Shown: positions 39,325 through 43,390 of the stretch, piece after piece
Position numbering within the stretch: position 1 is the first letter of the stretch
How the letters are laid out: the number at the start of each line of letters is the position of its first letter
From: Leptospira sp.
Lineage (GTDB): Bacteria; Spirochaetota; Leptospiria; Leptospirales; Leptospiraceae
DNA length: 64,000 nucleotides
Assembly: GCA_034439575.1 (NCBI GenBank)
Contig: JAWXAQ010000016.1
Span: 299,500-363,499, forward strand
Direction of reading: 5' to 3'
Translations under genes and position numbers: made by a program
The notes under the pieces: model-generated
The model's database searches: none
What the model was told of the DNA's origin: nothing
Seen by the model: the letters and a program-made list of their open reading frames with translations, nothing else

Positions 39325-41037
39325 TTAAATTTTTAAGAAAAAAATATCCTGTAGTTTTTTTTGTGATTCATTTGGTTCATCGATAAAGGAAAGTTTTTTG
39401 TTTTTATAGCAAAATCCGACCTCTAACATAATTTCTTTGGTGTGTCCAAATCGAGAAATTAAAAAGTGAACCCTTTCTTTGGGTTGAAGCATTTTTTCAG
39501 CACGATCAAACATTGATTTGTTGATCCGTTTTCCGTTCATCGCGATAAGTTCATCATCTAACTGTAAGTCGAATGAAGTTTCATCATCAGAAAATAGGAT
39601 TTTATTAACATATAAATTCCCATTTTTCTCCTTAACTTTGAATTTCAGATCCGGTGAAATATCTGATTCAATTCTAAATAAGCCAATAGATTCAAGATAA
39701 TCATCAACCGGTATTTTGATAGGTTTAATTAGATATGGGTCAAATTCTGTTTTCAAATCTATTCCTGTAGCTTCTTTGGCTGTATCAAAAAATTCCTGTT
39801 TGGTGAATCCTCTATTCTTTTGAATATGATACTTTGTGTATAAGAGTTGCATGATATCACGAAAAGATTTATTTCCTTCAGACTTACGTAAAATATAAAG
39901 GATCATACATAAAATTAAAACGGCACCTTTCGTATAATAAGAGACGGTCAAATTATGACTATTTCCATTTCTTTTATAGTATTTTGTCCAAGCCGTGAAT
40001 GATGAATCTTCTAAACTCATTAAATTTTCGGCAATTGTTTCATCCAAAGAAAAGATATCACTTTGTAGGCGAACGACAAACTCATCTTTAGATAAAAAGT
40101 TTGATTGATATAAAAAATATATATCGTAGAAACTTGTCGCTCCTTCAGCAATCCAAAGTTCCTTAGTTAAGTTGGGATTTTGATAATCAAACGGTCCAAG
40201 TGCAATAGGCCTTATCCGTTTAATATTCCAAAGGTGAAAGTATTCGTGCGATAAAAGTTCTAATAATTTCTTATATTCTTCCTCATCGTTAATAAGCTCA
40301 GGGCTAAAAAAATTTATACTACTCGCTTTGTGTTCTAAACCTCCATATGAAGGTTGAGATAAATTGACAACAAACAGATAATAATCGTTTGGTGAATTTC
40401 CCATCCATGAAATTTGTTTGCTGGTGATGATTTTTAAATCATTCGCCAGTTTCTCCTTAAAATTATAAGGGATATTTCCTTCGACGACCATTTCATGTTG
40501 GCAATTTTCCGTTTCAAAAAGGATTGAATTTTGATTTGATAAGTGAATGGGGGAATCATACAATTCATCGATATTAATTGCAAAGAATTCGTTTTCATTC
40601 GCTGTTTTTTTCAAAGAAGTATAAATATTGCTAAAAAACTCATTCACATCGAATTTAATTGTTATCTGTGTATCTAATTTATTTTCTAAATATAAGAATA
40701 ATGCGGGTGGATTTATAAATCCAAAATCTTTGACAAGATAATTTGTCCTTACCGTATAATCTTCAAAGGCATAGATTATATATCTGATTTTTATGTTAGG
40801 TGATTCATTTTTTATCTTCCATTTATGTAAATGAACCTGCTCCCAATTTAAGTCTTTCCCAGTGATCGAATCTTTAGCCGAGAATTGGTGCAAATGAGTT
40901 GAATAATCCCTAATCATATAAGAGCCCGGAGTCCAAGTGGGCATAAGGAGATTTGTATATTCACCTATGGCTTGTAAGTTTAGAGTGACTTCATAATAAT
41001 GTTTGTGAATATCTAGGATCTGGACTGAGTAGTGCAA
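39325..41037 (-). CDS. M61 family glycyl aminopeptidase with C-terminal PDZ
   Basis: MP.WTPGSY..RD, GGLEH, HEYFHLWN.KRIRP, LW.AEG.TSFY, SYY.KG. Confidence 0.92.
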   Translation of the reverse strand: MHYSVQILDIHKHYYEVTLNLQAIGEYTNLLMPTWTPGSYMIRDYSTHLHQFSAKDSITGKDLNWEQVHLHKWKIKNESPNIKIRYIIYAFEDYTVRTNYLVKDFGFINPPALFLYLENKLDTQITIKFDVNEFFSNIYTSLKKTANENEFFAINIDELYDSPIHLSNQNSILFETENCQHEMVVEGNIPYNFKEKLANDLKIITSKQISWMGNSPNDYYLFVVNLSQPSYGGLEHKASSINFFSPELINDEEEYKKLLELLSHEYFHLWNIKRIRPIALGPFDYQNPNLTKELWIAEGATSFYDIYFLYQSNFLSKDEFVVRLQSDIFSLDETIAENLMSLEDSSFTAWTKYYKRNGNSHNLTVSYYTKGAVLILCMILYILRKSEGNKSFRDIMQLLYTKYHIQKNRGFTKQEFFDTAKEATGIDLKTEFDPYLIKPIKIPVDDYLESIGLFRIESDISPDLKFKVKEKNGNLYVNKILFSDDETSFDLQLDDELIAMNGKRINKSMFDRAEKMLQPKERVHFLISRFGHTKEIMLEVGFCYKNKKLSFIDEPNESQKKLQDIFFLKI

Positions 41038-41094
41038 TTTGGAACCTTATAATATAGAGTCTTTCTATTTTTCCCTTTTTTGCCAAATGTTTTC

Positions 41095-41123
41095 TTGACA
41101 CTATTTCAGCGCAGTACTAGAAA
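41095..41123 (+). promoter_or_regulatory. Putative sigma70 promoter for an unannotated small transcript
   Basis: TTGACA (41095-41100), 17-nt spacer, TAGAAA (41118-41123). No long + strand gene follows. Confidence 0.5.
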
Positions 41124-41159
41124 AGGTTAGCTAAGGTATGAGCAAAGGAGGTGGTCCAT

Positions 41160-41216
41160 TTGGATAGTAGTTGTTACAACACAAGATTTTTGACCCGCGA
41201 GGTGGCTGGGCAATAA
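41160..41216 (+). CDS. Candidate small ORF, 18 aa (MDSSCYNTRFLTREVAGQ)
   Basis: TTG start 8 nt after the GGAGG core of AAAGGAGGTGGTCCA (41144-41158); TAA at 41214-41216. Confidence 0.5.
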   Translation: MDSSCYNTRFLTREVAGQ

Positions 41217-41251
41217 GCCTTCCGCATTGTTGCAAAACCGACCAGTCGCAG

Positions 41252-41310
41252 TCTTCCCAAGTTTCGAATGTTGGTCACTTTCGAGCTTTTGCAGTCGCTT
41301 GGGAAGATTT
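41252..41310. terminator. Long stem-loop between the small + transcript and the 3' end of the - strand MCP gene
   Basis: TCTTCCCAAG (41252-41261) / CTTGGGAAGA (41298-41307), perfect 10-bp arms, with an inner TTCGAA/TTCGAG stem. Confidence 0.55.
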
Positions 41311-41326
41311 CTCCTTACTCCTATTT

Positions 41327-43390
41327 TTATAGCACAAATTTTTGAAGTACTTCGCTTAACTTAGTACTGATATTTGTCATCCCATTCGAATTTTCATTCA
41401 TCACAGAAGATTGGTCAGAAAGTATTTGAGACCCATTCGAAATATTGATAGTCATATTTGACAATTCTTCAGTCGCCCGTTTCTGTTCTTCCGTTGACTG
41501 TTGTATGGCGATAATCAATTGAGAAATTTCGTTCATTTCACTAAATATTTCATCGGTTCTAAGTTTTTGGTCTTGGATCATTGGAATGATCTCTTTTGCT
41601 TTGTCAAAAATAATAGAGACTTCGGTTGTGATTTCACGCAAAACTTGTATTAGTTTACTTACTTGTTCACCACCTCTGTCTATTGAAGTCAAGGCTTCCT
41701 CGGATAAATTATTTATCTGAGAAACAGAGTCGGCAGCTTGTGCAGCAAGTTTAGAAATCTCTTCTGCCACAACGGCAAAACCTCGGCCGGATTCACCCGC
41801 ACGTGCGGCTTCGATAGCAGCGTTCAATGCCAAAAGACTAGTCCTTTCGGATATATTTGAGATCACATCTGAGAATTCAGTAATCATTTGAGACTTTTCT
41901 TGAATTTCAACTATGGCTTCCGAAGTTTTTGCCGCCATCGTTCTCCCTTCTTCTGCTTTTTGGTTGGCACCGACAGCGATGCGTCCGAAAGATTCTATTT
42001 CTTTAGTTACATTTTGTACTAAATCTTGAATTTTTGTCAAAGACCCATGGATTGATTTTGTATTTTGTACAGCTTGCGTGACATTACCGTTAATTGTTTC
42101 ACTTGAGGCATTTAATTGTTCGACGGTGGCACTTGCTTCTTCTGAAGAAGCCGCTTGAGACTGCGCCAAATCAGATAATTCAAATATAGATTTTTCCAAT
42201 TGATTGGTAGACTTTGATAGCTCCCCACCTGACGTTTGTGCAACGGTCAATATTTGTTTGATGTTTTCAATCATTAATCCTAGAGAATTAACAAGATTGC
42301 CCATTTCATCATTTTTGGTATTGACAAGAGTTTGCGTAAGATCGCCTTTACTTGCACGTTCTGTGAACTTCAAAATTTCTTGGAGACGGATATCTACAAG
42401 CTTATGAAAGATAATATAATTTGCAATAATTGAAAATATAATCCCTGCGCCACCTAACAAAAGTGATAGCCAGAAAATAAATTGGATTTCTCCAGTGATT
42501 AAATGTAATGGATAAGAAATTCGGATGACCCAAGGTTTAGTGTCTTTAATCAAAGTTATCGATGAAGTTATGTGCAAGTAGTCTGAAGTAGAATAAATTT
42601 CATTAGCGTTTTTTGCATTCAATACATCATTTATTTTATGATCCATTCCGTTTTCCCATTGGTTTGACTCTTTATCGCTATTAAATCCATTGAATAAAAC
42701 ATATCCATTGCTCGCTATAATCGTGATTTTACATTCTCCATTGAATAATTTAACGTTTTGGAAATAACCTTGTATCGTCTCCAATGACAGGTCGGCTCCA
42801 GCGATCCCTACAAATTTATCATTTTGCAAAATAGGGTAAACAAGAGATACCATAGTAATTTCTTTTCCATCAACTTTATATTGAAAAGGTGGAATCAGTT
42901 CTACTTTTTTTGAAGTTTTGGGGATTTGATAAAAGTCAGATTCAGGTTTATCATAGTCTATCACTGGTTCTATGATGATGGAACCGTTTGATTTAACTGA
43001 ATAAGGAATAAATCTCCCCGTATTATCATGGTAAGTTGTATTTCTGAATTTAGCATCTAATCCATCATAGGCGTTTGGCTCAAAAACGAGATATGTACCG
43101 AGAATAGATTCGTTTGAAGCAGTCAAAACATTCATTAACTTCATTGCCCTGTTGCGATCTAAAATTTTCCCATCTTCCAAGAATTTTTTTAACAAATAAG
43201 CTTCTGTCAGTGGGGTTGAAATATAAGAGACAATATCAAGTTTAATTTTTTCGGAAAGTAGGTTGAGATTTTCTATCGTATCCGATTTTGTTTTATTATA
43301 TATAACTATGGAAATGATGATAAGAATGATACCGAGAGTTAAAAGATTTATAAATGAAGTACCTACAGCTAATCTTTGTTTGATAGTCAT
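41327..43390 (-). CDS. Methyl-accepting chemotaxis protein (dCache-type sensor, HAMP)
   Basis: 2 [16 protein letters not shown] sensor, [29 protein letters not shown]. Confidence 0.95.

Follow-up and report, generated by a model that had tools for sequence, protein, structure and literature searches.

What is an almost complete complement of the 16S rRNA 3' end doing in front of an 18-codon open reading frame (ORF), in a gap between two genes that are read from the other strand? The question arises at positions 41095-41322 of a 64,000-nucleotide (nt) stretch of a Leptospira sp. genome (assembly GCA_034439575.1, contig JAWXAQ010000016.1, positions 299,500 to 363,499; hereafter the window), where a small gene occupies the + strand between two minus-strand genes (coordinates checked on the sequence). 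A sequence-only reading of the window had offered three answers: a tightly controlled small-peptide gene, an RNA that captures 30S subunits, or an atypical type I toxin-antitoxin locus. The element is real and stands well above chance, and only the second of these answers fits the match to 16S rRNA, the fixed stop codon and the RNA structure described below. Judged by shared anatomy and covariance-model scores, it is a distant, sub-threshold relative of Ms_IGR-5 (Rfam RF02471), an ancient and patchily distributed small RNA (sRNA). The novelty claimed for it thus holds in part: the lineage, the range of the family and an anatomy that explains the two GAGGTGG motifs of the sequence are new. The reading we prefer, with a probability of roughly 0.55, is that of a translated, 30S-docking sRNA, the leptospiral form of Ms_IGR-5, whose translation would open an internal helix (P1). 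Its identity as a ribosome-engaging relative of Ms_IGR-5 is held more surely than the switch.

The complementarity holds for the organism's own 16S rRNA. The 16S gene ends in ...GCGGCTGGATCACCTCCTTTTATAAAGG in this genome (at the end of contig C1) and in four genomes of the same genus, so that the extended Shine-Dalgarno (SD) sequence, SD1, pairs with it over 15 contiguous nt with a single G-U wobble, as had been supposed, forming a duplex of -26.0 kcal/mol. Of the GGAGG sites in the 4.1-Mb genome, 2576 on the two strands together, SD1 has the longest such complement, barring the antisense of rRNA gene ends (three sites of 16 nt and one of 15 nt); the next GGAGG sites reach 14, 13 and 12 nt, and 2054 of the 2576 extend over 5-7 nt. 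The window contains the 12-mer AAGGAGGTGGTC once, where 0.13 occurrences are expected, and AAGGAGGTGGT is invariant in 27/27 aligned Leptospiraceae sequences. The Rfam 16S model RF00177 matched no 16S gene in this assembly, and an exact 13-nt pattern of the 16S end occurs four times (contigs C1, C9 and C13), twice at or near contig ends; the rRNA genes of this assembly seem, from these hits, to be unassembled or collapsed.

Across lineages the run of A residues before GGAGG follows the run of U residues at the end of the lineage's own 16S gene (five lineages; outside the Leptospiraceae the comparison covers four genomes in which both the element and the 16S gene end were read). The leptospiral 16S end ...CCTCCTTTT (UUUU) goes with elements reading CAAAGGAGG or (G/T)AAAAGGAGG (AAA/AAAA), while a 16S end of ...CCTCCTTTCT (UUUCU) pairs up with GGAAAGGAGG or AGGAAGGAGG (GGAAA/AGGAA) in one genome each of Acidobacteriaceae, Mycobacterium and Latescibacterota, and a Planctomycetia genome with the 16S end ...CCTCCTT then GAAC (UU) carries GGAAGGAGG (AA). 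The variation of SD1 fits pairing to the very end of 16S rRNA in this small sample.

The element is a single-copy constituent of most Leptospiraceae genomes. A 301-nt DNA query found matches in 24/24 sampled genomes of the same genus and in 0/16 genomes of a sister family, and a family-wide DNA search recovered 39/40 genus members at 82-94% identity as well as, with the SD-plus-ORF core, 22/22 genomes of genus g21. R1, a covariance model of the 5' core trained on Leptospiraceae only, was run on 114 genomes of the family and detects one copy, never more, in 104 of them (g1 39/40, g13 5/5, g16 3/4, g18 1/1, g20 1/1, g21 22/22, g22 24/24, g23 8/8; no match in genera g11, g12, g14, g15, g17 and g19). 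In an even sample of the phylum R1 matched 18/151 genomes, those outside the family comprising one clear match (E = 6.6e-10) and one marginal one. The conserved block spans ~41127 to 41308, and its conservation exceeds that of both neighbouring genes by far; the M61 peptidase protein on one flank is only 58-65% identical within the genus. The neighbours themselves are constant within the genus and different in g21.

Ahead of this block lies a sigma-70-like promoter, found as the sequence-only reading had placed it (TTGACA, 17-nt spacer, TAGAAA). TTGAC is invariant at the -35 place in 25/25 genus members, and CAAATGTTTTC upstream of the promoter is likewise conserved. The -10 hexamer is replaced by TATGTT in locus L003 and by TATTTT-type hexamers in other genera; with a constant TTGAC and a changing -10 hexamer the site behaves as a promoter. 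A simple promoter scan omitted 41095-41123 because TAGAAA lacks the final T. We infer from this promoter-like site that the element is transcribed in this organism, the predicted start lying 6-9 nt past the -10 hexamer and the predicted end in the pyrimidine-rich run after the terminal stem S3. A promoter of its own, together with a block far better conserved than its surroundings, makes it very improbable that the element is a cis-acting leader or attenuator, or a terminator or untranslated region (UTR) shared by neighbouring genes. Such a role might be read from S3, which adjoins the 3' end of the convergent chemoreceptor gene, and from the co-oriented ribosomal protein gene that lies downstream in single genomes of other phyla (L111, L150), but in the window both neighbours, including the next gene (41327-43390), are on the minus strand, leaving no co-oriented gene downstream, and the neighbours vary between genera and phyla. 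The gene next on the same strand is rpmE-like (L31) in L111, a member of the Bryobacterales, and rplM-like (L13) in L150, from the Latescibacterota, both names being our reading of the translations; no conserved downstream gene was found in the other phyla, where ORF calling in high-GC DNA is noisy.

The short ORF that follows SD1 is conserved as a frame with a beginning and an end. The frame was examined in 40 Leptospiraceae sequences and 80 from other phyla, a set in which many members are closely related and hence not independent. In 119 of these 120 one frame, and no other, combines a start codon 4-16 nt past GGAGG with a stop 5-7 nt past GGCU, and the lone exception has a 1-nt insertion that places the stop 15 nt past GGCU. 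The 18-codon ORF proposed from TTG 41160 is thereby confirmed as a conserved feature. The first in-frame start is TTG in 42 sequences, ATG in 40, GTG in 26 and CTG in 11, and between genera the frame is preserved across whole-codon insertions and deletions. The stops are TAG in 95/120, TAA in 22 and TGA in 2, most TAG cases being in high-GC genomes, where TGA is usually the common stop; a link between the TAG preference and release factor 1 is possible.

The peptide itself is another matter. In most of the 120 sequences it ends in ...T-x-E-V-A-x-x, an ending common to Leptospiraceae, Actinomycetota and Acidobacteriota which, with an ORF kept open between a start and a stop, is what a small-protein gene would show, the peptide being the product and the RNA structure tuning its synthesis. 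However, E-V-A is encoded by the 5' strand of P1 (GAGGUGGCU), whose third codon positions never vary, and the amino acid following EVA changes together with the RNA partner of that strand. The frame has a different register relative to the conserved motif in Latescibacterota, Eisenbacteria and Planctomycetota, where other peptides with different ends are encoded and the stop position is unchanged. Among 25 genus members 11/54 coding sites are variable, distributed 5/3/3 by codon position, and the alleles comprise 3 synonymous and 8 non-synonymous changes; as far as these alleles tell, the peptide shows no purifying selection. Shifted frames, an unconstrained peptide and a fixed stop argue that the act and extent of translation are kept and not the peptide, so that a functional 18-residue product, as first suggested, is improbable. 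The nucleotides of the first ORF codons (41163-41180) share the motif GAT.GTAGTTGT with the acidobacterial loci L092 and L095; the motif yields Ser/Cys-rich peptides in Leptospiraceae and Acidobacteriota and can form a small GUUG/CAAC hairpin in the window. The overlapping 9-codon ORF that had been noted across the SD is present in this sequence and is not conserved, its ATG reading ATA in 15/25 genus members.

The same peptides bear on the idea of an atypical type I toxin-antitoxin locus in which a strong SD is sequestered over a long range. The strong SD, the short ORF and the structured mRNA would all suit such a locus, as would the pyrimidine-rich 3' tail, which is able in this sequence to pair with the SD, but the peptides are polar, as had been remarked, and also variable, with no small hydrophobic membrane peptide among them. 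One copy is found in 104/114 genomes of the family, syntenic within the genus, and a consensus scan, a weak test, gave no minus-strand promoter-like site within 41095-41322. The CTCCTT from which sequestration had been proposed is indeed present, and the energies lend no support to a specific pairing with the SD: the tail-SD1 duplex averages -8.35 kcal/mol against -8.59 kcal/mol for shuffled tails (n=61 Leptospiraceae, all tails being pyrimidine-rich). A toxin locus is accordingly the least probable of the readings considered here, and we give it almost no weight.

The RNA structure was assessed on 27 aligned sequences, whose consensus fold contains five helices, Ha, P1, P2, S3 and S4 (Table 1). 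Pairing is present in 97.4% of the cells of these helices and drops to 34-51% once the partners are shifted by 1-3 columns, and the check for covarying stems was positive, with 15/32 consensus pairs varying on both sides by compensatory changes. None of 500 shuffles reaches the observed pairing values, except for the count of further pair types, which is reached in 77/500. G-U pairs are frequent and would turn into A-C mismatches if the opposite strand were the RNA, which argues that the RNA is read from the + strand. The start codon and the greater part of the ORF lie inside helix Ha, in which the closing portion of SD1 forms the 5' strand and the only variation is from G-C to G-U. The remaining AAAGGAGG of SD1 is unpaired in the consensus fold.

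Helix P1 accounts for the second GAGGTGG (site 2), which had been noted inside the ORF and lies at 41199-41205: the 5' strand of this covarying helix sits inside that motif and the last ORF codons. The duplex amounts to -14.3 kcal/mol in this sequence (its upper four pairs, 41202-41205 with 41246-41249, are those counted in the 27-sequence test). In many family members the P1 3' strand is the best partner of site 2 within 230 nt downstream, and where the partner was located by pattern (77/120 sequences) the mean duplex is -15.8 kcal/mol against -9.3 kcal/mol for shuffled partners. The 1-2 nt past GGCUG covary with the partner across phyla (UC/GA, CC/GG, GC/GC, CU/AG, A/U, G/C), and in three g23 genomes the core of P1 has changed on both sides in a compensatory manner, GGUGA being matched with UCACC. 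The 5' strand GAGGUGGCU is identical in 27/27 aligned Leptospiraceae, whereas its partner varies, mostly in ways compatible with G-U pairing, suggesting that this strand has a second reader, for example the anti-SD of the ribosome. Site 2 can pair with the 16S tail at -15.8 kcal/mol. The partner strand of P1 (CAGCCACC and variants) resembles the 16S tail, so that P1 amounts to an internal copy of the SD/anti-SD duplex.

The stop codon itself lies in hairpin P2, in which five pairs (41210-41214/41229-41233) are 100% paired in the 27 sequences, two further pairs are added from the sequence, and the apex differs in length between genera. The GGCT/AGCC hairpin that had been drawn over the stop is confined to this sequence, P2 being the conserved one. 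Between P2 and the P1 3' strand the joiner AAAACCGA occupies the place of an AAUCC motif that is conserved in other genera and phyla. Within the terminator domain the loop UGGUC and GCAG.C.C are near-invariant in Leptospiraceae.

Several repeats within this domain were observed. The S4 loop UUGGUCA (41271-41277) repeats the last bases of SD1 (UGGUC), GCAGUCGC (41291-41298) repeats the P1 3' strand, and the loop of the actinobacterial inner terminator hairpin likewise carries GUCC or GGUCC; the two leptospiral repeats suggest that further alternative pairings or a pseudoknot may form. Alternative partners of the P1 3' strand in this sequence are SD1 (-8.7 kcal/mol) and the S4 loop UGGUC (-8.2 kcal/mol), and site 2 can pair with the invariant GCAGUCGC at -13.0 kcal/mol. 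In loci L248-L250 (genus g23) the S3 5' strand, ACCTCCTTT, is identical to the 16S anti-SD and could pair with SD1 at -17.6 kcal/mol; in that genus only, the terminator stem would have an explicit alternative that sequesters the SD.

Kinship with Ms_IGR-5 rests on scores and on anatomy. A window-wide Rfam scan gave no match at gathering level. Against RF02471, the one family that emerged, the locus scores 18.8 bits, where the gathering cut-off is 45 bits (E = 0.035 on 501 nt), and in a whole-genome search it is the only match at E <= 10 (E = 0.067); other weak Rfam matches in 40950-41450 (small nucleolar RNA, microRNA and P31; E 0.18-3.3) were treated as chance. The RF02471 model gives 85-176 bits in 6 Actinomycetes and 47.7-49.6 bits in one Acidimicrobiales and two Acidobacteriota loci, and falls to 30.5 bits in Latescibacterota, 23.4 in Heliobacteriaceae and 20.1 in Planctomycetia; it passes the cut-off in 9 of 19 scanned loci (6/6 Actinomycetes, 1/2 Acidimicrobiales, 2/5 Acidobacteriota, 0/6 others). 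Its consensus contains the same SD, a short ORF ending in ...TCEVAAR, and GAGGUGGCUG. In both branches the element has the layout of an independent small gene: a short leader at the 5' end is followed by AAGGAGGUGGUC(C) and a start codon, then by an ORF of 11-20 codons with the ending ...EVAxx, by GAGGUGGCUG and by a stop in a hairpin; beyond these come an AAUCC-type joiner, the strand CAG.C.CC and a terminator domain that contains an inner hairpin. The leptospiral form differs in a 5' leader that is longer in this genus and lacks ACAC, in its joiner AAAACC and in the invariant GCAGUCGC of its terminator domain. The Rfam consensus structure pairs SD1 with GCUGCC and does not draw P1. Two features of the family recur here: an extended SD followed by a short ORF that stops just past GAGGUGGCU (in 119/120 sequences, that of the window included, and in the Rfam consensus), and a stop hairpin between GGUGGCUG and the CAG.C.CC strand after the AAUCC-type joiner, with the terminator domain beyond.

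The relatives in other phyla were retrieved by scanning one genome per Genome Taxonomy Database (GTDB) species for both motifs with a gap of 20-50 nt, which returned at least 120 stretches where ~9 are expected by chance under uniform base composition. The 80 loci listed comprise 54 from Actinomycetota, 17 from Acidobacteriota, 2 each from Planctomycetota and Latescibacterota, and 1 each from Eisenbacteria, Zixiibacteriota, Heliobacteriaceae, Syntrophobacter and Leptospira jelokensis. The R1 alignment runs end to end in 24/25 loci from other phyla and in 69/72 loci, and it covers the AAUCC...CAG segment, which is absent from the retrieval pattern. In even samples the family proves patchy: RF02471 matches 44/151 Actinomycetota at E <= 0.001, 20 of them over the cut-off (4 of the 44 are genomes flagged as unpublished; without them the count is 40/147), and R2, a sequence-only model, matches 16/151 Acidobacteriota. 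At E <= 0.001 RF02471 matches 0/14 control genomes, including E. coli, B. subtilis and C. glutamicum; Corynebacterium glutamicum lacks a match though it is an actinobacterium.

Ms_IGR-5 was reportedly first described in Mycobacterium smegmatis. Published accounts, of which the portions available to us are cited, place it there between MSMEG_5794 and MSMEG_5795 as a validated, uncharacterised, nicotinamide adenine dinucleotide (NAD)-capped RNA with a 5' A (bioRxiv 10.1101/2021.12.14.472595) that is detected again under cold stress (PMC10454040), report homologues with ribosome footprints in M. abscessus and M. smegmatis (PMC4974804), and describe it as its own sRNA transcription unit in S. avermitilis (PMC8780764) and as expressed in S. 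lividans (PMC8079986). In these portions of the literature, which do not include the original report, 16S complementarity, an ORF or a function of Ms_IGR-5 was not found described.

The position of SD1 relative to the 5' end bears on whether docking alone might be the function. In most lineages SD1 lies only a few nt from the inferred 5' end, with ACAC 5-8 nt before AAGGAGG, and the M. smegmatis start maps to A (bioRxiv 10.1101/2021.12.14.472595). Together with the very stable 16S duplex (-26.0 kcal/mol) and the strongly structured, covarying 3' domain, this would suit a 30S-docked structured RNA in which SD1 serves as a 5' stabiliser or a ribosome sponge: a bound 30S or 70S would protect the RNA or be parked on it, and the structured body, binding for example a protein or another RNA, would be functional in place of translation. 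A pure docking site, however, has no need of the start codon and fixed stop that are kept in 119/120 sequences across three frames, and a single-copy gene would need very high expression to titrate ribosomes. We regard this explanation as doubtful, though it is the strongest of the rivals; the toxin, functional-peptide, leader and UTR readings are weak.

For a translated docking sRNA the parts can be arranged in a sequence of events. The RNA would be transcribed from its own + strand promoter, and near its 5' end the single-stranded AAAGGAGG together with UGGUCC would pair with nearly all of the free 3' tail of 16S rRNA. A 30S subunit would dock very tightly on AAAGGAGG, the duplex extending into Ha, and with the start codon at normal spacing the ribosome would read the tiny ORF, the peptide being irrelevant. 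On its path it would have to melt Ha and then P1, in which the second SD-like strand GAGGUGGCUG is presumed to be held by the internal strand resembling the 16S tail. It would halt at the stop on the P1/P2 junction, with GAGGUGG a few nt behind the P site. Translation would thereby convert a closed RNA into an open one with its 16S-like strand and AAUCC-type joiner exposed, and the RNA might so act as a reporter of the supply of initiation-competent ribosomes or respond to it. A further step, which we put forward tentatively and hold less likely than the preferred reading as a whole, is that this cross-phylum RNA acts as a gauge of free, mature, initiation-competent 30S subunits, an SD copy held by a tail mimic being pried apart by an ORF indifferent to its peptide; the freed 16S-like strand may then act on the ribosome-binding sites of other mRNAs or on the stability of the RNA itself.

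Several observations weigh against this model or limit what can be drawn on for it. The RNA data are strandless assembled contigs of relatives. A 348-nt transcriptomic contig of one relative (run X9) covers the homologue and ends within ~10 nt of the predicted 3' end, a weak hint of a small transcript that carries no strand; at its other end the contig reaches ~100 nt beyond the predicted start, on the upstream side. The multi-kb contigs of runs X2 and X6 are uninformative on a small transcript, and run X13 gave nothing. Folded as a single sequence, the + strand is not unusually stable (z = -1.31), and the minus strand is more so (z = -3.32); a minus-strand RNA was rejected because, well as it folds singly, the promoter and the G-U pairs of the conserved helices favour the + strand. 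The RF02471 match lies far below its cut-off (18.8 against 45 bits), and the retrieval pattern fixes 21 nt of both motifs, so that motif invariance outside the Leptospiraceae, and part of the R1 score there, arise by construction. Within the Leptospiraceae SD1 and site 2 are invariant, which leaves covariation with 16S rRNA untestable in the family, and the cross-phylum comparison of 16S ends covers five lineages only.

Table 1. Positions in the window of the features of the element and of the flanking genes.
Feature	Position	Strand	Basis or remarks
Sigma-70-like promoter: -35 TTGACA, 17-nt spacer, -10-like TAGAAA	41095-41100; 41118-41123	+	sequence and conservation
Predicted transcript, ~190 nt	41130-41322	+	conserved block and G-U pairs of helices; inferred
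Extended Shine-Dalgarno SD1 AAAGGAGGTGGTCCA, 15-nt complement of 16S 3' tail, one G-U	41144-41158	+	16S comparison
Short ORF: TTG start, 18 codons (MDSSCYNTRFLTREVAGQ), TAA stop 41214-41216	41160-41216	+	sequence and conservation
Overlapping 9-codon ORF (MSKGGGPFG), ATG 41138	41138-41167	+	judged incidental
Helix Ha: GGUC 41153-41156 / GACC 41192-41195	41153-41195	+	100% of cells paired
Helix P1: GUGGCUGG 41202-41209 / CCAGUCGC 41242-41249	41202-41249	+	covariation, duplex energy
Hairpin P2: GCAAUAA 41210-41216 (TAA stop included) / UUGUUGC 41227-41233	41210-41233	+	pair counts
Joiner AAAACCGA between P2 and P1 3' strand	41234-41241	+	alignment
Stem S3, terminator-like: 41251-41262 / 41297-41308	41251-41308	+	compensatory changes in 7/12 pairs
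Hairpin S4 inside S3, loop UUGGUCA 41271-41277	41264-41270; 41278-41284	+	compensatory changes in 7/7 pairs
Invariant GCAGUCGC inside S3 domain	41291-41298	+	alignment
Pyrimidine-rich tail with CTCCTT 41311-41316	41309-41325	+	sequence
M61 glycyl aminopeptidase gene	39325-41037	minus	flanking gene
Methyl-accepting chemotaxis protein (chemoreceptor) gene	41327-43390	minus	flanking gene

The genomic placement of the element was observed in the 15 genomes assembled into <=5 contigs. In 14 of these it is on contig C2 (G005, G007, G010, G016, G023, G086, G090, G073, G079, G078, G069, G075, G048 and G100; C2 measures 0.3-0.5 Mb where printed) and in the remaining one, G072, on contig C4, so that the element seems to reside on the small replicon across genera. 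The small chromosome of L. interrogans carries candidate sRNAs, including LIC2nc20 and LIC2nc40; the available portions of the reports (PMC3953431, PMC5243855) do not make a link to the element.

Several known systems invite comparison. The STAB-SD of cryIIIA in Bacillus thuringiensis is a 5' mRNA stabiliser that presumably works through its binding to the 16S 3' end; like SD1 it is a near-perfect extended SD close to a 5' end, but it has no start codon after it and belongs to the leader of a long mRNA, whereas here a start codon and tiny ORF are conserved in a standalone RNA. The dual-function sRNAs SgrS/SgrT, RNAIII/hld and SR1/SR1P are likewise small RNAs both translated and structured, but their peptides are functional, whereas the sequence of this one is unconstrained. 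The type I toxin mRNAs hok and aapA1 also hold a strong SD within alternative long-range pairings; here no hydrophobic toxin and no antisense partner were found, and the gene is a single-copy core gene. At the prfB frameshift site and other internal SD-like sites, as here, GAGGUGG or its like stands a few nt upstream of the P-site codon with a stop in the A site; no frameshift or downstream frame is evident in this element, and its SD-like strand also takes part in a conserved helix. Transfer-messenger RNA (tmRNA) combines a tRNA-like domain with a tag frame that has neither SD nor start codon. It was considered and rejected, since ARAGORN finds nothing in 40800-41600 and the window holds no Rfam match at gathering level.

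Finally, the finding bears on the family and on the organisms that carry it. To our knowledge few small RNAs cross bacterial phyla, and tmRNA, 6S RNA, signal recognition particle (SRP) RNA and RNase P all proved central. An uncharacterised actinobacterial Rfam family gains a single-copy, near-universal relative in the Leptospiraceae, and its range becomes much wider than the name Ms_IGR-5 suggests. With this relative comes a common architecture, in which full docking of the 16S tail is combined with a peptide-indifferent ORF that has a fixed stop and with an internal helix mimicking the SD/anti-SD duplex. A testable working model is also gained, with fast-growing hosts for both branches of the family in saprophytic Leptospira, M. 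smegmatis and Streptomyces. If the RNA does gauge free 30S subunits, it would represent a new class of translation-sensing riboregulator.

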